From Dictyostelium discoideum (Eukaryota): a stretch of DNA of 64,000 bases. Position 1 is the first letter of the stretch. Each line of letters begins with the position of its first letter. Positions 1,331 through 26,302 of this stretch are shown here, in pieces. The DNA lies in contig CM000151.3 of the NCBI GenBank assembly GCA_000004695.1, positions 2,496,001 to 2,560,000 on the forward strand, written 5' to 3'. The notes below the pieces were generated by a model. It worked only from the letters and a program-made list of their open reading frames with translations. It was not told where the DNA came from and ran no database searches. The translations under genes and the position numbers were made by a program.

Positions 1331-2115
1331 TTTTTTTTTTGAATTGGATAACGCAATTTTGAATGTATTATTACTTTTGATTAAAACATCTTTTTTGTCC
1401 AAATTTTTTTCTAAATCTTTTTTTATATTTTTTTTTTTTTTTTTTTTTTTTCATTTATAGAGAGTACTGAGTGAATTATTGTATTTTTTGAGATGTTTGG
1501 GAAGTGCTATTGCGTGAAGAGGTGAGTTCCATTGTCTGTTAAATTGTAATAACTTTAGAGATTAATGAGTCTAATTTATTTTGTTCTTCTGGCCATTGCT
1601 TTGATTTGATTCTTAATGTTTTGTTTATAACCGCTTGTGTCCTATCCCATGCAACTCTTTGTGTTTTAATTAGTTCACGTATGACTTGTTGTCTATGAAT
1701 TACTATTTCTATTTCATCGTGGATGAGTTTGTTTCTTTTGTGCCAAATTTTTTCGAATATAATAGCTATTAAATTGGATATTAGTGCAATTTGTAGATGG
1801 TTTAAAATCTTAACATTCCAGGTGTGTCCACACTTGGTTAATGTGTAGTTGAAGATTTCTTGTGTGTTTTTGATGTGGGCTTTGCAGTTGAAGAATATAT
1901 GTTCTGAAGTCTCATCTTCCCCATACTGTTGGCATGGCATGTTGTATATTTTTGGTAGTGCTTTCTGTGTGTATCTCCATAATAGGTCTCTACCTTCCAT
2001 GTTTATTATTTTTTTAATTTCTTTAAATGGAAGGTGTTTGCTATTCATTTTGATCATTATTTCTTTTTGGCCAGGAGTTAATTTTGGATGGTGTTCATAT
2101 AAATAAAATAATTAA
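1331..2115 (-). mobile_element. 5'-truncated TRE5-type (TRE5-A-like) non-LTR retrotransposon copy: ORF2 C-terminal fragment, internal oligo(A), C-module and terminal oligo(A). Truncated end lies ~35-50 bp upstream of the tRNA-Glu gene
   Basis: Minus-strand ORF 1539-2057 has a Cys/His-rich tail similar to the ORF fragments at 19855-20152 and 17586-17909. Oligo(T) at 1430-1452 and 1331-1340 on the + strand equals oligo(A) of the element. 1341-1358 gaattggataacgcaatt is the reverse complement of the C-module terminus seen at 11421-11438 and 20168-20185. Position and orientation (5' end facing the tRNA, ~48 bp upstream) match established TRE5 behaviour. Confidence 0.6.
1539..2057 (-). pseudogene. 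TRE5 ORF2 C-terminal fragment (172 aa ORF, not a host gene)
   Basis: FEKIWHKRNKLIHDE...AWDRTQ aligns with ESIWYRRNQIKFND...AEWDRTR of the 19855 fragment. The open frame runs on to ~2115 with no ATG. Confidence 0.55.
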
Positions 2116-9333: not shown

Positions 9334-10025
9334 AATTTGTTGTTTGGTTTTATATTTTTACTTAAAGTATAAATTTAAAATATATTATATATTAAATATT
9401 TAATTTAATTTTTATTATTAATATTTTCTTTTTTTTTTATATTTAATATGATATATTTATATATAAATTTATTTTTATTATTAATGTAAACTATATAATA
9501 TATATATTAACATTGGTTTAGAGGTAATCCATCTTCAATTGAGATTGATTATGGAAAAAGGTTAATTTACAAAATAAAATTGAACAATTTGATGATTTAA
9601 AAAGGTAATTTGTGTATCACGAATAAACTATTTGGGAGGGCTAAGCTAGGAAAGAAGTAATTTAAGGCAAAATGAATTTTATTGCTTGTAGTTATTATTT
9701 TTATTTTTTTTTTATTTAATATCGATATATTAAGATTTATTTGTTATGTTGGAGCGTCAGCACATTAAACTCAAAATAATAACTTTATAAAGAATATACA
9801 AAATAAACTAATTTACAAATGAAAAATGTAAATGAATAAATATAATAAATGAAAATGAATTTAATAATATAAATAATTATTGTAACAAAGAACTACTGCA
9901 TACCTTACAAATTGTAATGAATCTCGTATTCTAACTTTATGGAATACTTATATTATTTTGGATATATCAATAAACGATGTGTGACCCTTGAATAATTAAT
10001 AATAATTTATATAATCTATAGATAT

Positions 10026-10160
10026 CACATCTTAATGAAACGTGGTTATTCCAGGTTAATGAGTGGATAGCAATTGAACGAGCATCAATAGGGGTATCAA
10101 AGAAATGATTAACAACAGTGATACGATCAGTTACACCAGTAATAGCAGCACCATGACCTT
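10026..10160 (-). pseudogene. Discoidin I pseudogene fragment (~135 bp internal piece of the H-type lectin-domain coding region)
   Basis: ~90% identical at nucleotide level to 14292-14428 and 15777-15913 of the two intact discoidin I genes. Homology stops abruptly on both sides. Confidence 0.75.
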
Positions 10161-10951: not shown

Positions 10952-10997
10952 GTGCATATGTTTAAAATTTTTTCACCAAACTCCTGTGCATATGTTT

Positions 10998-11451
10998 AAA
11001 AAAAAAAAACCTGGAACCCAAGTTAATCAGAAAATTTCCAGATTTTTAACTTTTTAAAGAAAAATAAAAAAAATAGAAAGAAAATAAAATGAAAATCACA
11101 AACAACACCACAAATATTAAGCAACACAAATGCCTACAAAAAATAAGCGAAATTGTGGATAAAACTCAATTAAAAAAAAAACAATTCAAATACGTCATAA
11201 ACATCAATCACGAACCAGACGATAAAATAAAAAAAGATTTAGAAAAAAGTTTGGACAAAAAAGATGTTTTAATCAAAAGTAATAATACAATTCAAAATTC
11301 GAAACAAAAAAAAAAAAAAAAAAAAAAAGTAAACCAACCCCTCTTTTAGAGACCCTGTAAAAAAAAAAAAAAATAAAATAAAATGAGATCTAGCATCTCA
11401 AGGAGAAGCAAATAATAATTGCGTTATCCAATTCAAAAAAAAAAAAAAAAA
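10998..11451 (+). mobile_element. Severely 5'-truncated TRE5-A-like element (C-module region plus oligo(A) tails) inserted ~47 bp upstream of tRNA-Leu, 5' end facing the tRNA, flanked by a TSD CTGTGCATATGTTTAAAA
   Basis: TSD copies at 10982-10997 and 11456-11473, with a third copy of the same motif at 10952-10968. 11320-11450 is the reverse complement of 20168-20278. 11200-11290 matches the reverse complement of 1345-1430. ORF-track entry 11089-11349 lies inside this non-coding module. Confidence 0.65.
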
Positions 11452-12589
11452 AAACTGTGCATATGTTTAAAATTTATCATGTAATGTTTATAATTTATCA
11501 TGTGATGCTTATAATTTTTTTGCTTTTAAAATCAATTATTCAAAATATTTTCTATGACCTTGTATTATATTTGGTGTTAATGCTGAATTATCTAGTGATT
11601 GGTATAAATCAAGAATTTCATTCTTTAATAATAATGTGTACATATAATCACCAACTCCAAACTCTATAAACAGAAGAACAATACTACATGTACATGTTCA
11701 GGTATAAACACATTAGCCGTCTCAACTGATCCACCATGGCCTCAAATAACTTCGGTTTACATTTTTGATTCACTGTTTACTTTATTAAGTCATGAATTTC
11801 TTTATTTTTTACTTTTTTTTTCTAAAAAATATAGTCATTTATTAAGTTAATTTGAGCAGTATAGTGATAAATTGAAAAATAAACTCTGTAGTTTTTCTTA
11901 AGTGTCCAAAACATACATAAAATAGTTTTTATTGAAGTGGTTATTTAGGTGCTTCACTTGATGAAGGTAATCAAACTGCATAGAATGATTTGATGGTTAA
12001 ATGTTCAGATATGGCTTGTCGTGAAGCACTTAAAGAAGTTTCAAGAATGAAAATAATCATAATATTAAAAATTATAATATAAAATAAATTTCTCGTGTGT
12101 CGAGTATTTTCTTATGTTAATTTTATTTGCACAAAATTAATAAATAAAATAAAAGTAGTGTATATGAAAATAAGAAAAAAAAAAGTTTTAGAGCAAAAAA
12201 AGAAAAAGAAAAAAACAAATAATTCCAAAATTAGAGTACTTTTTAAAAATTATTTAATTATTTATTTATTTATTTATTTATTAATTAATTTATTTTTTAA
12301 TTTATTGATTTATTGATTTATTAATTTATTATGATTATTTACATTTTTGTAACTTTAATAGCTTAACGTCATGTCATTTCTAAATATTTAATCTTTTCTA
12401 ATTCTTTGCAGCTTGTTTACCTTTACCAGGTGAAGCTCCGAAATTACTAACAGAAGCATCGTAAAAAAAGCCACAGCTTTACCAATCCATTCTTTACTAA
12501 GTAATTGAGGGAATACACCAAAAAAAGAATGATTGACTTATACCACTATAAAGTAATGGTCACCAGTAATCGAATTGGTCTATCTTTAA

Positions 12590-16491: not shown

Positions 16492-16589
16492 TATTGGGGG
16501 CAAGTGAAATTTCCCAATTTTAAAATAATCTCAAACTTTTAAAAGAAAACAAAAAAAAAAAAAAAATCTTTTTACTTTTTGGGGTTTAA

Positions 16590-16622
<33 letters not shown>

Positions 16623-16857
16623 AATCAATTTTTTTTTTTTTGTTTGGATTTTATTTTTATAATTTAATAATTATTTAATAAAATATTTTCTTTTTTATAA
16701 TTTAATTTTTATGTTTAGTCTTTTAATTTATATATTTCTTTTTTTATTTATCTTTTTAAAAGCTATAATTATTATTGAGGAATCTAACTAAAGAAAATTA
16801 TATTTTTTTAATTTTATATTAAAAAATTAAAAATATTTTAATACAGTTGATTAAAAT

Positions 16858-16896
<39 letters not shown>

Positions 16897-17136
16897 TGAT
16901 TAATTAGTTTATCTAAAATATCAATTTTTTTTTAATATTTTTGAATTTTAAAATTTAAATTTATTATTCTTTTTTCAATTTAAATAATCAAATTAAAAAT
17001 TTTAATTGTAAAATATTGTATTAATATTATTGGTTTTTTTTTTTTTTTTTTTTGATCAATGTTATTAAACCATGTTCATGAATAATAAAAATTAATTTCA
17101 ATAAATTCTTAAAACCGTTTGGATAATTATAAGTTC

Positions 17137-17190
17137 TCGCTAGTTCGATTCTGAATAAATGAAATAGGAATCGAACTAGCGACATATTCT
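17137..17190. promoter_or_regulatory. Perfect 15-bp inverted repeat (TCGCTAGTTCGATTC / GAATCGAACTAGCGA, 16-bp spacer). Each arm contains an external B-box-like AGTTCGATTC, located 20-70 bp downstream of tRNAi-Met copy A
   Basis: Only the tRNA-proximal arm is shared with copy B (20709-20725). The distal arm is an extra inverted copy. Confidence 0.5.
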
Positions 17191-17580
17191 ATATAATTTT
17201 AAAATTTAGCTTCTCTAGGTTTCGATCCTAGGACCTCGAGGTTATGGGCCTCGCACTCTACCCCTGAGTTAAGAAGCTGTCGATTCAAGCTAACGAATCT
17301 TATGATTTTGTTGTAATAAAGTTACTCTATAAAATTAATACATATTAAATATGCATATTACATTACTAATTTTAGTTGACACACATTTAAATAATATAAT
17401 AATAATAATAATAATAATACTGTCAACTCATTATAAATAATATAAATACTAAAGAATAATTTTATAAACAATATTGAATATTAAATATAAACTAATATTA
17501 AATAAAGATAACAAAGTATTATTCAATTATATAATTATTAATTATATATATTTATAAAGCTAACAAGCTTTATTACATTT
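17163..17580 (-). repeat. Arm A of an inverted segmental duplication (~420 bp): tRNAi-Met gene plus 302 bp upstream flank and ~45 bp downstream flank
   Basis: Reverse complement of 20315-20730 with only a few mismatches. Confidence 0.85.
17207..17278 (-). tRNA. Initiator tRNA-Met (anticodon CAU), copy A
   Basis: Identical to copy B, see 20614-20685. Confidence 0.85.
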
Positions 17581-17831
17581 GTGTAATGAACGTCGTATTC
17601 CAATTTCTATTAAATAACAGCAGCCTGGGAAAAACAAAAAACAACATATACAAACTAATCAGACAAGAAAAAAAAGCAACCAACAACGAACAAACAAAAA
17701 AATTCAAAAACATCATCTCCCTACAACTCGAAAGATTTAGCAAACACTGGAACTCACCACTACACACAGTAGCACTACCATCAAACCTCAACAAATATAT
17801 TACGTCACTAAACACACTCTACACCCCCCAA

Positions 17832-17884
<53 letters not shown>

Positions 17885-17992
17885 ATACAACCTTAAAAGG
17901 CACCTGTAATATCTAATAATAAAATTAATAAAATGAGTTATATCTCAAGAAGAAGCAACTAAAAATTGCGTTATTCCATTCAAAAAAAAAAA
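17581..17992 (+). mobile_element. 5'-truncated TRE5-type element (a divergent subfamily relative to the 19855 copy): ORF2 C-terminal fragment, oligo(A), C-module-like tail (AAAATGAGTTATATCTCAAGAAGAAGCAACTAAAAATTGCGTTATTCCATTC) and oligo(A). Truncated 5' end abuts the duplicated tRNA flank exactly at its breakpoint
   Basis: ORF 17586-17909 ends LERFSKHWNSPLHT, matching RLEKFSHNWKSKLMT of the 19855 fragment. The tail is ~75% identical to 11385-11440. Confidence 0.6.
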
Positions 17993-18009
17993 TTCCTATT
18001 AAATACTTT

Positions 18010-18600
18010 TAATAATTTGACCCTTGAACACACAGAAATAATTAATAATAAATAATAAAAAAAAAATAATATTATATCTCTTATATAAAAATTATAAGTT
18101 TAGTTTGTGCACAATTTGGAATAAAACAACAATGAATTTTTATTTTATTTACTATTTATACTAAAATAAATTTTACTAAAATTTCTGAGAATAAAGTAAG
18201 AATCTTGTATTTGTTAACGTCTTTTCAGCTACAGATCTATTTCTATATTTGTATTTTACCAGGGATAAAAACTTAAATATAAATTTATGTCGCTTAATTA
18301 TTCGCGATTATTACATTTTTCATCATTTGAATATATAATAATTTCCATTATTCAAGATTCACAAAAAAAGAAAAAAATTAATAAAAGTAAAAAACATTTT
18401 GAAACTTGTATAAAATACATAATATACGTGAACACACAGAAATAATAATAATAATAATTTATATATATAATATATTTATCTCTTTTACTACTAAAAATAA
18501 TGTTTATCTTTATTTTATTTAAACTATTTATACTAAAATTAATTTTATAAAGAAACGAATTTTTTAAATTTAGATCACCAAAATACCTTTTTTTTTTTTT
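18010..18600 (+). repeat. Two degenerate ~180-bp direct repeats (18010-18200 and 18420-18600) sharing GAACACACAGAAATAAT..., ...ATCTCTT..., ...ACTATTTATACTAAAAT.AATTTTA
   Basis: Visible as collinear blocks ~410 bp apart. Origin unknown; could be a solo-LTR-like or satellite remnant. Confidence 0.35.
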
Positions 18601-19283
18601 TTTAAAAAAAATCATAATTTTCTATTGCAATAACTCTTTTTTTTTTTTTTATATATTTTCAAAATTTTTTTTTTTTATTAATTATTATTTAAAAATAAAT
18701 ATAATATAAATTTTAAATATTATTTTAATATAAATATAATATATTTTATTAAATATTTACACATATTAATTTTTTTTTTTTTTATTTTTTTTTTTTATTT
18801 TTAGAAGTTTTAAAGATTTAATTAAATGTAAAGTATGTACTATAATGTGTTCACAATCAATATTTTATAATTGAGATCTTGGAGTTTGTATTTTTTGTAT
18901 TAAAGTAATGATAAAGGAAGAAGATGAACAATTAATTAAAAAAGAAGTTAAATCTATTTCAATTGAAGATGATCTTTATGATGAAGATAGTTATTGTTTG
19001 GATTGTGGGCAATTTAAAACACACTACTCCAGACATTGTAGTAGTATTCATCAACAAGTTAATGTTAATAAAGTTATAATGGATCACTGTAAACGTTATC
19101 CCAGAGAATCATTTAGAGGTAAAAAATCAAAAAAAAATGGAGATCAATTGAATATTCCATTTAAGTTATGGTTCAAGTCATTATAATTTTGGTAATACTG
19201 ATGACAAAACAAGTATCCAATGCTTCAATTGTATAGAATTTCATCCCATTCAATACCTTTAACTGATGCTGATGCTATAATTA

Positions 19284-19382
<99 letters not shown>

Positions 19383-19455
19383 TTCGTTTTTTCAATATTT
19401 CTTTTTTATTTCATTTTTAAAGGGAACAAAATATAATAGTTTGAGCAAAAAAAAA

Positions 19456-19494
<39 letters not shown>

Positions 19495-19854
19495 GCGCCA
19501 ACCCCAATAGAAGTTTACACCAATCAAAATTTTCAAAAAAAAAAAAATAAATTAAAATAAAATAAAAAGATGGCTTTTTTAAATAAGTGACTTTATTTAT
19601 TTGTTTTTAAGTCTTTTTATATGAAAAATGAAATAATCAAAAAGAAGTTGTTTTTGTTGGTTGTTTTTGTATATCTCTCTTAAGATTGTATATCCAAATG
19701 ATGAAAATGTAATAATCGCCAATGAATAAGCGACATATATTAACATATATAGTTTTCATCCCTGTTTGAGAAAGGATCTGTAACAACAAAAATGCACTAT
19801 TCATTCAGTGAATGTTCAGGATTTATCAAATTTTTTTCTCCAAATTAGAATATC

Positions 19855-20152
19855 TTGGAAAAAAAGACAGCCATTATGGAATCGATATGGTACAGAAGAA
19901 ACCAAATAAAATTCAACGATAACACTACAATAATAACAGAGAACCAAATAATTCATAAAATCAAAAAAGCGAGAGATGCCGAATGGGATAGAACAAGAAA
20001 GATAGTAGAAAAGCAACTACGTCAAGAACTAAGATGCACTGATAACCGAGAGTCAATCAATAGGACCGCATCAATAAAAAGAAGACTCGAAAAATTCAGT
20101 CACAACTGGAAATCGAAACTCATGACCATAAACATCCCGGAACACTTCAGAC
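19855..20152 (+). mobile_element. TRE5-A-like ORF2 3'-terminal fragment. The upstream boundary is uncertain and may extend to ~19700. Interrupted at 20152 by a nested insertion
   Basis: Translation ESIWYRRNQIKFND...AEWDRTRKIVEKQL...RLEKFSHNWKS is TRE5 ORF2-like. The track start is a TTG, not a real start codon. Confidence 0.55.
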
Positions 20153-20280
20153 TTTTTTTTTTTTTTTGAATTGGATAACGCAATTATTTGCTTCTCCTTG
20201 AGATGCTAGATCTCATTTTATTTTATTTTTTTTTTACAGGGTCCCTAAAAGAGGGGTTGGTTTACCTTTTTTTTTTTTTA
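20153..20280 (-). mobile_element. Nested, minus-oriented insertion of a minimal TRE5-A 3' end (oligo(A), ~105-bp C-module, oligo(A)) flanked by a 13-bp TSD GAACACTTCAGAC
   Basis: TSD copies at 20140-20152 and 20281-20293. Inserted segment is the reverse complement of 11318-11451. Confidence 0.65.
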
Positions 20281-20613
20281 GAACACTTCAGACAACATTT
20301 AGTTATTTGATATGAAATGTAATAAAGCTTGTTAGCTTTATAAATATATAATTAATAATTATATAATTGAATAATACTTTGTTATCTTTATTTAATATTA
20401 GTTTATATTTATAATATTCAATATTGTTTATAAAATTATTCTTTAGTATTTATATTATTTATAATGAGTTGACAGTATTATTATTATTATTATTATATTA
20501 TTTAAATGTGTGTCAACTATAATTAGTAATGTAATATGCATATTTAATATCTATTAATTTTATAGAGTAACTTTATTACAGAAAAATCATAAGATTCGTT
20601 AGCTTGAATCGAC

Positions 20614-20685
20614 AGCTTCTTAACTCAGGGGTAGAGTGCGAGGCCCATAACCTCGAGGTCCTAGGATCGAAACCTAGAGAAGCTA
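20614..20685 (+). tRNA. Initiator tRNA-Met (anticodon CAU), copy B
   Basis: AGCTTCTTAACTCAGGGGTAGAGTGCGAGGCCCATAACCTCGAGGTCCTAGGATCGAAACCTAGAGAAGCTA. Perfect 7-bp acceptor stem. Anticodon loop CCCATAA has C33. T-loop GATCGAAAC has A54 and A60. These are eukaryotic initiator-specific features. Similar to human tRNAi-Met (GGCCCATAACC, AGGTC, GGATCGAAACC blocks). Confidence 0.85.
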
Positions 20686-20714
20686 AATTTTAAAATTATA
20701 CAGAATATGTCGCT

Positions 20715-20725
20715 AGTTCGATTCC
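20715..20725 (+). promoter_or_regulatory. External B-box (AGTTCGATTCC) 30-40 bp downstream of tRNAi-Met copy B
   Basis: Matches the B-box consensus GGTTCGANTCC at the position established for Dictyostelium ex-B boxes. Confidence 0.55.
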
Positions 20726-21023
20726 TATTTTAAAGAATTAAATTCCATATTGATTTAATTTTAAAAAAATTAAAAGCCTACAGTTGATCAAACGGATACT
20801 AGATACAGAAAAACATATCCATCAATCTAACATCAACTACATTCAATCTATCTACTCTACACACTAATTCCTTCAATCCTTGGATTGGGAATAAGAATAG
20901 ATCTGAATAAACGATAAAGAAAAAAAAAAATAAAAATAAAAATCAAAAATATTTTTATATAAACACATAATTAAAAAAAAAAAATAATAAAAATAATCTA
21001 AAAAAAAAAAAAAAAAAAAAAAA

Positions 21024-21800
21024 ATGAATTTTTTCGATAAACTTAAAGGTGAACTCAACTTAGGCGAAGAAGAGTTAAATAAAAAAACTATTCAAATAAG
21101 GTTATTCTACCCACATACCTTGGAATTAAATAGTAATTCAACAAAATTAATAGATAATTTCATAGTTAATGGTACTCTTAACATTGTCAGAAGACAAAAA
21201 GGTATAACAGTATTTGGTAGAATACTAAAAGAAAAATTCACATTATTACACGAGTGTTACAGCACTTTCAAGTATGAAGATTTCCCACTGCAAAAATTCA
21301 TACTTTACACCCCAGGATATCACTATGTCCACTTTTACACATTTACAAAAAACATAATAAAAAAAATAAACAATCAAATGGTAAAAGAAAACTGGGGATT
21401 GGAGCCATTACTAATAGATGAATGCAACATAGTAATGCTACCAGATGTGATTAGATATTCATGCATTCTATTATTTAACAAAGAAGATGATATCTCAATC
21501 ATTAAAACAAACATTGATGCTATAAAAGGTAGTAAGCATCCAATAAGAGCCTTCATCTCTGAATATAACAATAAAGAAATAAGAGATGTTAGAAAAAAAA
21601 AAAACACAAGTAATAAAAATCAACAACCAACAACTACAAATACAACTAAACCAATACCATCAACTCCACCAACAACTAATGCATCAACAACCACACCAAT
21701 AACAACCACACCAATAACAACCACACAAACAACAACCACACCAACAACAATCACACATCAATTACCAACAAGCAATACAACAATCAACAACCTAAACAAA

Positions 21801-21835
<35 letters not shown>

Positions 21836-21905
21836 AAAACCTATCAATAAAATTACTACAAGCAATGGTACCAAGTTTCCAATTGCCAGTAGTATTAGAA
21901 AATAA
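21024..21905 (+). CDS. TRE3 ORF1 (293 aa, Thr-rich C-terminus)
   Basis: First ORF of the element. Confidence 0.7.
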
Positions 21906-24640
21906 TGGAACAATTAAAATTATTACTATGGAACTGCAGAGGTAATCAATCAACCAACGCTAAGAATAAAACAGAAGAAACGATAAAAAGAATTGGCACT
22001 CAATTAACACTCCTAACTGAAACTAATTTCAATGGATTCAACCACCACAAAACAATGTTCAACTTTGAAAGAATAGATCATGGTTCAGGTAAAGGAACTG
22101 GCATAGCAATAGAAAATAGAGATACAAGAAAAGGCCACATATCAATAAACTTCAAAGACGATGATGGTAGAATACTATCAATTAAATACAATTCCTTTAA
22201 TTCTATCAACATATTATTGATCAATGCTCCAGCGACTATATCTGAAAGAAACACCTTCATAATCAACTCAAAATCACTGTTTAAAAAATATAATTCAATC
22301 AACCATCAAATAATAGCAGGCGACTTCAATAACAACCACGATTGCAACAGCTTCTTCGGTACTGAATTACGTAAAATAATAGACCAAGACATGCTACTAG
22401 ATACTGGTATTGAAGAAAACACTCCAACATTTCCAAGATCAATGAAGAGACTAGATAGAATCTACTGTCATCCAACACTACTAAACCAAAATTCAAAACT
22501 GGTAGTCCACAACACAGTATTCAACAAATCAGATCACTTTCCCATCACAATCACAATACAAACCAACAGAGAAACAACAACAACAACAACAACAACCAAA
22601 CTAGAAAGACTCCCTTGGACATTATGTAAAGAAATTCTCAACAACAAACATATACATGATGGGTTATCAGAATTAATCAGTAAGAACAAAGATAAGATCA
22701 AATCAGTGGAGGAATGGACGAAATTTAAAAATAATGTCATCAGAGATTATTTAAAAAAAGAACAAAACAAAATAAAGAAAGAAAAGAACAAAAGAAAATA
22801 CGTAATCCACAAATTACTTGGAAATAGTGATATCATTCCAAAGATGAGAAAAGAACTCAATGAAGAAATAAGTAGAATATTAGAAGAAGAAAGAAAGGTA
22901 AAAGCATGGGATATAAAATTAAAACTCCACCTGCATCAAGAAACACCAAGCAAATACCTCACAAGTATCCTTAAATCCAGAGCCAAAGATAAATCAATAT
23001 TCCAAATAAAAGATAAAGATAATAAGACCATATCAGATAAAGAGAACATAGCAAAAAGATTTGTTGAATTCTATCAAGATCAATATGAAGAGAAAGAAGA
23101 TAACGAAGAAACCCACAAGAAGTTATTAGAAAAATGGGAAGTAGACGTTGATTTAATCAAGAAACTCGAGATAGACAGACCGATAAGAATACATGAAGTG
23201 ACCAAAGCAATCAAAACTTCAAGTATCCACAAATCTCCAGGTTTAGACGGTATCAATGCACTATTCTACAAGTACCACATCAACTCAATAGCAAGAATAT
23301 TGACTATAGCTTTCAACGACCTCCTCACAAATAAGAAAGAAATCCCCACAAAATTCAAAGAAGGAGTAATAACAACAATATTCAAAAAAGGAGATGAACT
23401 AAACATTTCAAATAGAAGACCAATCACCCTTCTCAATACAGATTACAAAATTTTAAGCAAAATTCTCAACAGTAGATTATTAGATATCACCAGTAAAATT
23501 ATCAACAAATTTCAAAACGGCTTTGTTCCAAACAGGTTCATCCAAGACAATATTCAGATCATGAAGGAAGTAATAGAAATAAGTAACAAAAGAAAGAACA
23601 ATACACTCATTACCTTTTACGATTTTAACAAAGCATTCGATTCAATCAGCCACAAGAGTATCACAAGAACATTAGAGCATATTGGTATCCCCCCAAAATT
23701 CACAGCGATCCTACTAAACCTACTCAAAGATACTAAAAACAAAATAAAGATCAACGACTTTTTAGTCAATGGAATAACAATCAGAACAGGAACAAAACAA
23801 GGAGACCCAATATCACCAACAATCTTTGCTCTAGTTTTAGAACCACTTCTAATAGATATCATCAATGATAATACAATCAAAGGCTTCACTCTACCAAATT
23901 CCAAATCATTAAAACTCACTGCATTTGCTGACGACATAGCAACCTTTACAAACTCCACAGAAGAACTAATGAAAATTAATACTAAAATCCAAAAGTACTG
24001 CTCAGCAACGTCATCATCGTTAAACAAAGAGAAAACAGTAATGATAGCAATAGGAGATAAACCACACGATCTACCATTCCAAGAGAGTACAGTCCCAGAA
24101 AGATATCTTGGCCTCAATTTCACCAAAACAGGTTTAAATTCAAAATACAACACTTTAATCCAAGAAATGAAAAACAATCTAATCAAATGGAAATCACAAG
24201 CAATAACGATGAAGGCAAAGATGACAATTCTCAAAACATACGTTCTATCCAAATTAACATACCATCAATACATGGATAATCTAAATGAAGAACAAATTGA
24301 GGAAATCAATAACATGACCAGATGGTTCTTATTCTCCTCAGTTAAGAATACATATACAGAAGAGAGAAAATACAAAACTATGATGAAAATAGACAGAGCA
24401 TATGCAGATTGGAAAGAAGGAGGCATAAAATTATGGGATATAGAACTAAGACATATAGCATTCAAAATCTGGTACATGAACAGGCTACTCCATAACAACT
24501 ACAACAACAACAACAATACCTTACAAGAATGGTACATGGAGCAATTAAGTAGAAAAAAGCCCACACTTCAACCCTCAACGATATGTGCAGACACTGGGGT
24601 GTATTCAGAGTCAAATTTTACCAAAACCATCCAAAGATAA
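21905..24640 (+). CDS. TRE3 ORF2: apurinic/apyrimidinic-type endonuclease plus reverse transcriptase (911 aa to the first stop)
   Basis: EEP/APE-like N-terminus, RT motifs 1-7 including FADD at the YXDD position. Confidence 0.8.
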   Translation: MEQLKLLLWNCRGNQSTNAKNKTEETIKRIGTQLTLLTETNFNGFNHHKTMFNFERIDHGSGKGTGIAIENRDTRKGHISINFKDDDGRILSIKYNSFNSINILLINAPATISERNTFIINSKSLFKKYNSINHQIIAGDFNNNHDCNSFFGTELRKIIDQDMLLDTGIEENTPTFPRSMKRLDRIYCHPTLLNQNSKLVVHNTVFNKSDHFPITITIQTNRETTTTTTTTKLERLPWTLCKEILNNKHIHDGLSELISKNKDKIKSVEEWTKFKNNVIRDYLKKEQNKIKKEKNKRKYVIHKLLGNSDIIPKMRKELNEEISRILEEERKVKAWDIKLKLHLHQETPSKYLTSILKSRAKDKSIFQIKDKDNKTISDKENIAKRFVEFYQDQYEEKEDNEETHKKLLEKWEVDVDLIKKLEIDRPIRIHEVTKAIKTSSIHKSPGLDGINALFYKYHINSIARILTIAFNDLLTNKKEIPTKFKEGVITTIFKKGDELNISNRRPITLLNTDYKILSKILNSRLLDITSKIINKFQNGFVPNRFIQDNIQIMKEVIEISNKRKNNTLITFYDFNKAFDSISHKSITRTLEHIGIPPKFTAILLNLLKDTKNKIKINDFLVNGITIRTGTKQGDPISPTIFALVLEPLLIDIINDNTIKGFTLPNSKSLKLTAFADDIATFTNSTEELMKINTKIQKYCSATSSSLNKEKTVMIAIGDKPHDLPFQESTVPERYLGLNFTKTGLNSKYNTLIQEMKNNLIKWKSQAITMKAKMTILKTYVLSKLTYHQYMDNLNEEQIEEINNMTRWFLFSSVKNTYTEERKYKTMMKIDRAYADWKEGGIKLWDIELRHIAFKIWYMNRLLHNNYNNNNNTLQEWYMEQLSRKKPTLQPSTICADTGVYSESNFTKTIQR

Positions 24641-25350
24641 ATGAACTTCCAGACTGTATAAGAAACGACAATGATGAACCACTAAAACTGAAAGAAATTT
24701 ACGAACTCATGATCAAAGACAGACACCCAACACCAAGAAGAACAGAATGGCAGAAGTTATGGGCGGTGAGATACAACACAGCAATACCCAAAGTATTCAT
24801 AAACATCAACAGCATTTCTCACCAAAAAGGTAGAAACACCCTCTTCAGATTCTTCTCAAGATCACTTCCAGGTATCAACCACGAAAGAGACACCAGATGC
24901 AAGATCTGTGGCCACCTATTCAGAGACCCTTATTCTCACCTCTTCACTCTATGCCAAGATATCCTAGATATTGAAAAAACCATCATATCAACAGTTAACA
25001 AATTATCATTCATCAAAATCCAAAGATGGTCAATGGATACCTTAGACATATCAAAATACAACAGAACTGAGAGAATCTTCCCCAATCTCATAGGAATAAT
25101 AGCACACCAATTATGGAAGATAATCTGTCACAAATTGTTCAACACTGATGAAAGCAAACCAGAGCCAAAATTCGAGCAAAAGGTCATAGAAACAGAATTA
25201 CTAAATCTCATCGAAACTGAAAAATTCATCACACTAAAGAAAATCAAACACGACGAAGCAATACTAAAAAACACCAATCAAGATCTTCACAAATACAAAT
25301 TCAACAAAGCCTGGCAAACCCCAGCAGCTCCGAACCCTCTTCCAATTTAA
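24583..25350 (+). CDS. TRE3 ORF2 C-terminal Cys/His (zinc-finger-like) domain in a different frame from 21905-24640. Apparent frameshift within 24583-24640, so this copy may be defective or the shift is programmed or a sequencing error
   Basis: CKICGH...H...C motif typical of non-LTR ORF2 tails. Overlaps the end of the RT frame. Confidence 0.5.
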   Translation: MCRHWGVFRVKFYQNHPKINELPDCIRNDNDEPLKLKEIYELMIKDRHPTPRRTEWQKLWAVRYNTAIPKVFININSISHQKGRNTLFRFFSRSLPGINHERDTRCKICGHLFRDPYSHLFTLCQDILDIEKTIISTVNKLSFIKIQRWSMDTLDISKYNRTERIFPNLIGIIAHQLWKIICHKLFNTDESKPEPKFEQKVIETELLNLIETEKFITLKKIKHDEAILKNTNQDLHKYKFNKAWQTPAAPNPLPI

Positions 25351-25355
25351 GTAGT

Positions 25356-25430
<75 letters not shown>

Positions 25431-26302
25431 GTTTAAAAAATTTAATACAATTGAATAATAAAAATAAAACCGTTTAACAAACACCGCCGAAAAGACACAA
25501 GGACATTCCTTGAAGGTCTGATCACAGGTAAAAAAAAAAAAAAAAAAATATTGATTTAATTTTAAAACTGAAAAAAAAAATAACAATAAAAATAATAGTA
25601 TCTTTTTTTCAAAATGAATTTGAGGGATGTATCCTTAGCTCTTATTGTCTCTTCTCTTCTTTTGGATTTATTGATTGCCTAGATTCTTGGTCTTTGAATT
25701 CTATGTCTAATAGAGCTACAGAATTTGAGAAATTCGGTATGTGTAGGATTATAATCCTATAAATTACTGAATATTTGATTTAATAGTTAAAAAGTGATTA
25801 ATCAATATTAAAAAAAAAAAAATTATAATAAATGAAACATTTGAACATGTTACAATTGTTCCACCTTTTTTTCAAACTATTTAACAAAATTTACTTTTTT
25901 AATTTAATAAAATTGGTTTTGTTTATATTAAAAATAATTTTCCATCGATTTTTATTAAAAAAAAAAAAAAAAAAGAAAATCAAATTTTAAAACTAAAAAA
26001 AAAATATTATTTTTTAATTAAAATTTATTTTTAATATTGGTAAAGTCACCAGGGACTTGTTTTAAAATAATTAAAAATTTAGGATAATTTAAATAATAAT
26101 ATTTTAAAATTTTAATTTTAATATATTAATTTTTTTTTTTTAAAATTTTCTCTAGATATTTTTTTTTTTTTTTTTTTTTTTGATATTTTGTGATATTTTT
26201 AGATATTTTAGAATTTTTTTTTTGAAAAAAAAAAAAAAAAAAAAAACTATTTAAATCACACCCAAATTTTAATTATTTTTATTTTTATACATATTTTAAA
26301 AA

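Follow-up and report, generated by a model that had tools for sequence, protein, structure and literature searches.

A putative C-module-only TRE5-A copy beside an initiator tRNA-Met gene of Dictyostelium discoideum, probably tRNA-directed and later displaced by an LTR

Positions 20153-20280 of a 64,000-nucleotide stretch of Dictyostelium discoideum DNA, referred to here as the window, are, as judged from their sequence, an extremely 5′-truncated 3′ end of the retrotransposon TRE5-A that was retrotransposed with a 13-bp target-site duplication (TSD). We estimate a probability of roughly 0.75 that this copy arose by TPRT, was directed to its site by a nearby initiator tRNA-Met gene (tRNAi-Met), fell on the edge of an older ORF2 fragment and was later distanced from the tRNA gene by a DGLT-A LTR. 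The insert is an ordinary 5′-truncated TRE5-A copy of a well-described kind and not a new type of element; with neither a promoter nor an ORF in it, it is a dead-end copy. The features on which this reading is built are as follows (window coordinates, strand, description and basis).

19869-20139, plus strand: host, an isolated fragment of the 3′ part of TRE5-A ORF2, 284 bp when the 13-mer is included (19869-20152); alignments and protein matches P0001-P0006
20140-20152, plus strand: left (distal) TSD copy, GAACACTTCAGAC; repeat search and shuffles, with a poly(T) run from 20153
20153-20167, minus strand: 3′ oligo(A)15 tail of the insert, T15 on the plus strand, abutting the duplication; read from the sequence
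20168-20266, minus strand: predicted C-module core, GGTAAACCAACCCC...GCGTTATCCAATTC, 99 nt; nhmmer, E = 5.3e-27 against a six-copy C-module profile that has the insert itself among its six copies
20267-20280, minus strand: 5′ end of the insert, one extra T and then A13; comparison with canonical copies
20281-20293, plus strand: right (tRNA-proximal) TSD copy; repeat search and shuffles
20294-20317, no strand assigned: 24 bp between the TSD and the LTR, not a continuation of ORF2, with the last 4 nt (GAAA) being the LTR duplication; alignment at null level

Read on the minus strand, the 128 bp of the insert consist of a T, A13, a 99-nt core that begins GGTAAACC and ends CCAATTC, and A15. Identity to the 3′ end of a TRE5-A copy at a tRNA-Leu gene elsewhere in the window (11315-11449) is 92.6% including gaps, and identity to two C-module copies of locus L007 is 89.8% and 94.6%. 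In the alignment with the tRNA-Leu copy, the core differs by one substitution and three length differences, two of which are in A/ATA runs. All of the 3′-terminal nucleotides of the C-module are present, and the predicted 3′ stem-loops are kept (two hairpins, −11.7 kcal/mol, z = −3.1), with a fold like that of the tRNA-Leu copy. Experiments on the element have shown that TRE5-A retrotransposition depends on a stem-loop within the last ~54 nt and is abolished by mutations of the stem, and that the 3′-terminal 87 bp are sufficient in mobile TRE5-A.2 (PMC3159450). In canonical TRE5-A copies, the B- and C-modules are separated by an oligo(A) run, so that the C-module follows a long A-tract (...TTCGAAAC-A23-GTAAACC at window 11290-11335; ...A31-GTAAACT in L007). 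The A13 of the insert is therefore native sequence, and the 5′ truncation lies inside that run.

The 13-bp sequence GAACACTTCAGAC occurs at 20140-20152 and 20281-20293, and no third match was found in the 64 kb on either strand with up to one mismatch. A chance origin is ruled out by dinucleotide-preserving shuffles, in which the mean was 0.02 matches and none of the 100 shuffles reached two. Other TRE copies within the window have duplications of 13-20 bp. The insert thus displays the hallmarks of TPRT, namely a perfect 13-bp direct repeat, an abutting A15 tail, 5′ truncation and an extra nucleotide at the 5′ junction. An initial annotation had described oligo(A), C-module and oligo(A) in the orientation opposite to that of the flanking ORF2, with the 13-bp TSD bracketing 128 bp. 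Its coordinates and sequence were reproduced, the module order is borne out by alignment and by the C-module profile, and the comparison of 20153-20280 with a TRE5-A 3′ end that it proposed is the one that gives 92.6% for the tRNA-Leu copy.

The same annotation counted the insert among the shortest plausible products of TPRT. We compared the window with five other loci (~76 kb; ~140 kb with the window) and found a C-module-only copy of ~136 bp, with a 12-bp duplication TTATTTATATAT, at L004 7573-7708 in a related genome; the size of the insert is thus not exceptional. The C-module profile detects nine copies in the ~140 kb, two of which are C-module-only copies. Similar stumps, and nested or tandem TRE5 copies, are readily met in these few loci, among them L007 4301-4710, which has a 16-bp duplication. 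Deletion of the 5′ end is typical of TRE5-A copies (PMC3159450), and just 5 of the 102 copies in the genome are full length (PMC5006619).

A question that bears on the origin of the segment is whether an inverted C-module next to ORF2 could be an intrinsic feature of TRE5-A. The host fragment is 97.2% identical over 282 bp to part of a D. discoideum TRE5-A copy (L007 5036-5317), 100% identical to L001 8369-8465 and 78-83% identical to three more distant TRE5 copies; the proteins that it matches (P0001-P0006) are annotated fragments of reverse-transcriptase ORFs. In L007, the sequence is uninterrupted and reads ...AACACTTCATACC...TAA-(A)n-spacer-B-C, the order being ...ATCCCGTAACACTTCATACCATACTGCTCATATATCACCAACTACTCATAA, A-rich spacer, B-module, A-run, C-module and tail. 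None of this 3′ end is left in the host, which lacks the final 39 nt of ORF2 as well as the spacer, the B- and C-modules and the poly(A) tail. The initial annotation had itself raised the case in which canonical TRE5-A contains the inverted C-module. The arrangement is absent from all five of the other TRE5 ORF2 3′ ends (L001, L002, L003, L004 and L007), which rules out an intrinsic structure and establishes that the segment is an insertion.

The insertion had also been described as nested inside ORF2. This holds for the left flank, which is TRE5-A ORF2 (97% to L007), whereas the insert lies at the 3′ breakpoint of the fragment and ORF2 is not continuous across it. Three independent alignments of the host all begin at 19869 and stop at 20147-20149; ORF2 homology stops no more than 3 nt from the edge of the 13-bp duplication, at or inside the repeat. 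Between the left TSD copy and canonical ORF2 (GAACACTTCATAC) there is one mismatch in 13 positions. Canonical ORF2 then continues ...AACACTTCATACCATACTGCTCATAT..., whereas the window has ...GAACACTTCAGAC and, right of the second repeat, AACATTTAGTTATTTGATATGAAA, a stretch for which the alignment to canonical sequence is no better than that of shuffles. A host ORF2 that was continuous across the insert is ruled out by this shuffle-level alignment. Both repeat copies carry a G where all other TRE5 copies have a T (CAGAC versus CATAC), and because the G is common to both, the ORF2 fragment was already joined to foreign DNA before the insertion, which duplicated that junction. The coincidence between the end of ORF2 and the edge of the TSD is explained only loosely, by supposing that the same tRNA-directed cleavage position set both junctions. 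The empty-site allele, which would read ...CCGGAACACTTCAGACAACATTTAG..., was not found in the one other assembly that was compared (L005/L006); this version of the locus is identical except for 9 nt in an A-run.

The surroundings of the insert are organized around two tRNA genes in inverted orientation, with the following features.

20614-20685, plus strand: initiator-type tRNA-Met gene, tRNAi-Met(+), with A1:U72 and T-loop GATCGAAAC; ARAGORN, Rfam tRNA (57.7 bits), initiator features from the sequence
17207-17278, minus strand: inverted twin, tRNAi-Met(−), identical; ARAGORN and Rfam
20318-20580, no strand assigned: 263-bp putative solo LTR (TGTAATAAAG...CTTTATTACA) of DGLT-A/‘H3R’ type, flanked by GAAA/GAAA, 33 bp upstream of tRNAi-Met(+); comparison, termini and duplications
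17312-17577, no strand assigned: twin 266-bp putative solo LTR with a perfect 5-bp duplication (TTTGT), 33 bp upstream of tRNAi-Met(−); comparison, termini and duplications
17617-17992, plus strand: TRE5-C-like 5′-truncated copy comprising the end of ORF2, a long A-run, a diverged C-module and an A-run; alignment and C-module profile

The tRNAi-Met pair is arranged head to head in a 421-bp inverted repeat (17162-17580 and 20315-20730) with 97% identity. ARAGORN and Rfam were also used to look in 16500-21500 for a tRNA gene or another Pol III gene closer to the insert, and returned only these two tRNA-Met genes. The region 20315-20613 was at one point taken for the native tRNA flank of the inverted duplication. 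This view was replaced when the same sequence (~250 bp) at an unrelated tRNA-Ile locus (L001), ~15 bp from the tRNA-Ile gene, revealed an LTR; the sequence also occurs twice in L004, at 80-91% identity. Both units in the window end in TG...CA, and the duplication of the right-hand one is only 4 bp long (GAAA). The DGLT-A LTR is 265 bp long and is found 13-33 bp upstream of tRNA genes (PMC5006619), with 18 of 20 DGLT-A elements at 13-18 bp (PMC6101501). We therefore assign the 263- and 266-bp units to putative DGLT-A-type solo LTRs, the class being set by length (~265 bp), TG...CA termini, short duplications and a position within 13-33 bp upstream of tRNA genes; in these properties they match the published description. 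They differ in that both lie at 33 bp, the extreme of the published range. The DGLT-A primer-binding site TGGCGACATCGTCTTTC was not found with up to three mismatches in the window or in any of the other loci examined, as expected for solo LTRs.

On the far side of the left LTR is a further LTR-like sequence, unit X (TGTAATGAACGTCG...GCGATTATTACA, ~347 bp), which L004 also has at both of its tRNA-Met genes. The left-arm unit is interrupted 34 bp from its end by the TRE5-C-like copy, which has its own 13-bp duplication, TT(T/C)CTATTAAATA, at 17604-17616 and 17993-18005; this copy is independent of the nested insert and is its counterpart in the other arm. The right arm retains no more of X than its inner ~160 bp (19707-19868); in place of the outer ~200 bp it has the ORF2 fragment, the nested copy and the 24 bp. 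The ORF2 fragment that takes the place of part of X has the wrong orientation for tRNAi-Met(+) and no tail. Twin priming or 5′ inversion as the origin of this fragment is unsupported, given that no antisense TRE5-A is found left of 19869; the fragment lies outside the 13-bp repeat pair, on the poly(A) side, a layout unlike that of twin-primed LINEs, in which a single pair of duplications encloses both the inverted segment, on the 5′ side, and the direct 3′ segment. An apparent DNA transposon with terminal inverted repeats at 18260-19764 was withdrawn, the repeats being the inner ends of the two inverted X copies, and an apparent ORF2 match at 19771-19783 is spurious, as this stretch aligns with X.

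The nested insert is on the minus strand, with its 5′ end (20280) turned towards the plus-strand tRNAi-Met gene's 5′ end (20614), which fits the orientation rule for TRE5 elements relative to tRNA genes (PMC5391098). At present, 333 bp separate the two, of which 267 bp are the 263-bp solo LTR and its duplication; without the LTR and one copy of its duplication, the distance is 66 bp. The TRE5-C-like copy is likewise correctly oriented and is 338 bp from tRNAi-Met(−) at present and 67 bp from it once the LTR and duplication are subtracted. The preferred distance of TRE5-A is 47 ± 3 bp (80% of de novo and 59% of genomic insertions), with ranges of 23-181 bp for de novo and 37-211 bp for genomic insertions (PMC5391098); another survey gives a genomic range of 37-90 bp (PMC5006619). 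The corrected values of 66 and 67 bp are inside the published genomic ranges, whereas 333 bp is beyond all ranges. We acknowledge that 66 bp lies outside the main 47 ± 3 bp window, which counts against a tRNA-directed reading. Controls within the window include a TRE5 copy 48 bp from a tRNA-Glu gene and the TRE5-A copy at tRNA-Leu. The latter (11002-11454, plus strand), which served as an internal standard for a textbook TRE5-A insertion, is short and bounded by an 18-bp duplication (CTGTGCATATGTTTAAAA), and its 5′ end faces the tRNA gene from a position exactly 50 bp upstream.

How the 333 bp are to be read depends on the order in which the TRE5 copies and the LTRs arrived. We infer that TRE5 came first and the LTR second, because each LTR has its own duplication and the DNA that flanks it was formerly contiguous, because TRE5 elements of independent origin have the same corrected distance at two copies of one tRNA gene, and because at L001, where the LTR (~15 bp from tRNA-Ile) was already in place, a TRE5-A copy sits within that LTR at a distance of 44 bp from the tRNA. 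The insertion is then most likely an ordinary tRNA-directed event. The initial annotation had preferred a retroelement over a tRNA-adjacent site as the target; this is not sustained, as orientation and the corrected 66 bp fit tRNA-directed integration and 267 of the 333 bp belong to a later-looking LTR. Its caveat that the target might have been chosen relative to tRNAi-Met is, on the strength of the LTR subtraction and the orientation, the better reading. Were the LTR the older element, the same retrotransposition would have occurred without direction by the tRNA gene, at a site that was random, chosen by sequence or cued by the outer end of the LTR. We consider this rather unlikely, although several observations point towards it: the present distance exceeds both the 23-181 and the 37-211 bp ranges (PMC5391098); the LTR is at exactly 33 bp in both arms, which are 97% identical over 421 bp, and LTR and tRNA gene could have been duplicated together before the TRE5 elements arrived; and the C-module-only copy of L004 lies inside an LTR, more than 2 kb from any detectable tRNA gene. 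This order would require that two independent TRE5 elements integrated 20 and 21 bp outside the LTRs, in the orientation that is correct for the tRNA genes, without a known cue, and the copying of a segment that already contained an LTR would not give a separate duplication at each LTR. At L001, the one place where the LTR is demonstrably older, TRE5-A entered the LTR itself, and the papers on TRE5-A targeting that were examined report no TRE5-A integration distant from Pol III genes.

A different possibility is that the C-module with its A-run is a SINE-like unit, whose short RNA is a full-length template mobilized in trans, so that such copies are complete. The insert starts almost exactly at a module boundary, the C-module-only copy of L004, from a related genome, is also flanked by a duplication (12 bp), and the C-module holds the RNA structure used for recognition, with TRE5-A.2 known to be mobilized in trans (PMC3159450). 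If this were true, TRE5-A proteins would repeatedly copy short C-module RNAs, and 20153-20280 and L004 7573-7708 would both be complete products. The 5′ ends of the two copies differ, however, with the insert starting inside the A-run and the L004 copy starting 13 nt upstream of it. These extra 13 nt also precede the A-run in L001, which is of the same subfamily, as would be expected for random 5′ truncation, and the A-run is itself native TRE5-A sequence. Only two of the nine C-modules in ~140 kb are of this kind, and no promoter is known for a sense C-module transcript, the promoter in the C-module being antisense (PMC3159450). We judge a SINE-like unit to be improbable. Still less credible is an origin by DNA rearrangement, in which the 3′ end of the host itself would have been inverted, or captured during break repair, beside ORF2. 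Such an event would account for the missing 3′ end of the host (the last 39 nt of ORF2, spacer, B- and C-modules and tail), and the region is visibly reshuffled, with an inverted tRNA pair and ~200 bp of outer X missing from the right arm. Inversion yields inverted repeats, whereas here there is a perfect 13-bp direct repeat and a clean A15; moreover, the B-module and spacer that would be expected between ORF2 and the C-module are absent.

For the favoured reading, a tRNA-directed TRE5-A insertion that preceded the LTR, the following course of events can be proposed. The target, at that time 66 bp upstream of the initiator tRNA-Met gene at 20614, would have been set by the Pol III complex on that gene, and the TRE5-A endonuclease would have nicked the plus strand after ...GAACACTTCAGAC (20152). 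The nicked 3′ end would have primed reverse transcription on the poly(A) tail of the TRE5-A RNA, and synthesis would have run through the C-module, whose 3′ stem-loops the element proteins recognize, before it stopped or was cut off in the upstream oligo(A) run, once ~113 nt and the tail had been copied. The 13-bp duplication would have arisen from a second nick, 13 bp nearer the tRNA gene, and subsequent fill-in, and the 5′ junction would have gained one extra nucleotide. The cut position would have been occupied by the 3′ edge of the older, broken 284-bp ORF2 fragment, which is why the copy looks nested. DGLT-A would later have integrated 33 bp upstream of the tRNA gene, between it and the insert, and would have collapsed to the 263-bp solo LTR, leaving the insert displaced to 333 bp.

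The insert resembles other 5′-truncated TRE5-A copies (the element was formerly called DRE) in its C-module, stem-loops, oligo(A), variable TSD, extra 5′ nucleotide and 5′ end facing a tRNA gene; it differs from them in its unusually deep truncation, to the C-module alone, and in its distance of 333 bp (66 bp without the LTR) compared with 47 ± 3 bp. With the non-autonomous elements TRE5-A.2 and synthetic TRE5-A(bsr), both of which are mobilized by the ORF2 protein in trans (PMC3159450), it shares the 3′-terminal C-module as a cis signal. Those elements, unlike the insert, have retained ORF1, the B-module and a promoter or A-module and are capable of further transposition. As a natural illustration of the known experiments, the insert shows the 3′ C-module as the part of the RNA that the machinery needs. 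5′-truncated L1 and other LINE insertions in animals arise by the same mechanism and have a poly(A) tail, a duplication of ~7-20 bp and a short 3′ stump. L1 mainly recognizes poly(A) and inserts at loosely defined AT-rich sites, whereas TRE5-A needs its own 3′ structure and targets Pol III genes.

More generally, layered insertions, here TRE5 followed by DGLT-A, can disguise a canonical tRNA-directed integration as a distant and nested one, and distances between TRE5 elements and tRNA genes should be measured after later elements have been masked. The fragments also bear on gene annotation: the window encodes parts of the AX4 gene model DDB_G0273271, and this model joins these fragments by splicing and is probably spurious. 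The window additionally carries two discoidin I genes.

The initiator tRNA-Met genes of the window provide a mild lead of a different kind, in that LTR and TRE5 copies are displaced by ~18-20 bp at both of them. The corrected TRE5 distances of 66 and 67 bp are ~19 bp over the usual value, and the LTR distance of 33 bp is ~18 bp over the usual 13-18 bp. The Pol III complex on an initiator tRNA gene may sit further upstream. If this is true, initiator tRNA-Met genes would shift both the DGLT-A (33 versus ~15 bp) and the TRE5 (66/67 versus ~47 bp) windows by ~18-20 bp and, as a weaker side reading, the shifted windows would report an unusually placed TFIIIB complex.

Both arms of the inverted pair of initiator tRNA-Met genes carry a DGLT-A-type ('H3R') solo LTR 33 bp upstream of the respective gene. 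Each is 263-266 bp long with TG...CA termini and is flanked by its own 4-5-bp duplication. A third copy lies outside the window at L001, a tRNA-Ile locus. The LTRs and the elements placed relative to them are:

17312-17577, DGLT-A-type solo LTR
20318-20580, DGLT-A-type solo LTR
L001 7722-7750 and 8784-9033, third DGLT-A-type LTR
L001 7751-8783, TRE5-A copy within that LTR, 44 bp from tRNA-Ile
17617-17992 (+), 5'-truncated TRE5-C-like copy: ORF2 end, A-run of ~50, diverged C-module
17581-17616 and 18006-18316, left copy of the LTR-like unit X
19707-19868, right copy of unit X, truncated and inverted relative to the left

The published distance of DGLT-A upstream of tRNA genes is 13-33 bp (PMC5006619), a range of which 33 bp is the extreme, and the TRE5 copies behind the two window LTRs lie 66/67 bp from tRNAi-Met once the LTRs are subtracted. 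Both element types are therefore displaced by ~18-20 bp at tRNAi-Met.

The TRE5-C-like copy, with duplications at 17604-17616 and 17993-18005, interrupts unit X on the upstream side of tRNAi-Met(-); its A-run is 9 nt shorter in the strain assembly GCA_054883475.1. Another TRE5-C-like copy, at the comparison locus L007 (4301-4710), lies between two TRE5-A copies and has a 16-bp duplication, TTGATCGTTATATTCA. Unit X reads TGTAATGAACGTCG...GCGATTATTACA over about 347-400 bp and adjoins tRNA-Met genes in two genomes: at L004, from the related genome, it occurs at 4662-~5010 and ~9650-10050, with one copy 12 bp upstream of a tRNA-Met gene and beside a gag/protease ORF. At first glance, the inverted inner ends of the two window copies could be taken for DNA-transposon terminal repeats.

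Other TRE5 copies at tRNA genes in the window, and TRE5-related features of the comparison loci, are:

1341-2099 (-), TRE5-B-like ORF2 (3' portion), 48 bp upstream of tRNA-Glu(+)
10952-11472, short TRE5-A copy: partial 5' region and B-module, A-run, C-module
L002 ~495-1066, small element, bounded by terminal inverted repeats (GGACCTATCAGTGAATAATTG...), within a TRE5-A B/C junction
L004 7573-7708 (D. cf. discoideum), C-module-only TRE5 copy: 13 nt, A8, C-module, short A tail

At tRNA-Glu, where the duplication is TAAAT(T/A)AAATAATTA, the 3' end consists of a TRE5-A B-module tail fused without a spacer to the final ~20 nt of the C-module, and a large part of the C-module has therefore been deleted internally. 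The short TRE5-A copy lies 50 bp upstream of tRNA-Leu(-) and has GTGCATATGTTTAAAA three times around it (10952, 10986 and 11457), the first abutting tRNA-Leu, with 18 bp to the second; the repeats may have arisen by tandem duplication, or may be what is left of an earlier event. The TRE5-A copy at L001 ends in ...GAGTGATGTTATT(A)12. It lacks the B and C modules and carries an internal inverted duplication. The C-module-only copy sits within an LTR, with a 12-bp duplication (TTATTTATATAT), more than 2 kb from the nearest detectable tRNA gene.

Between and downstream of the initiator genes, we found:

17136-17183 and 20715-20725, external B-box-like motif AGTTCGATTCC, downstream of each tRNAi-Met gene
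18908-20740, AX4 gene model DDB_G0273271 (protein match P0004)
20767-25547 (+), near full-length TRE3, 81 bp downstream of tRNAi-Met(+)
21024-21905, TRE3 ORF1
21905-24640, TRE3 ORF2 with endonuclease and reverse-transcriptase domains

The left-arm motif is part of a palindrome with 16-nt arms (GTCGCTAGTTCGATTC...GAATCGAACTAGCGAG), positioned at the exact end of the 97% inverted repeat. DDB_G0273271 splices together a 92-aa ORF between the two X copies, the ORF2 fragment of TRE5-A, and the region of the B-box downstream of the tRNA gene; the model is probably an annotation artefact. TRE3 has a 20-bp duplication, ATATTGATTTAATTTTAAAA; the C-terminal part of its ORF2 lies in a different frame (24583-25350), which suggests a frameshift.
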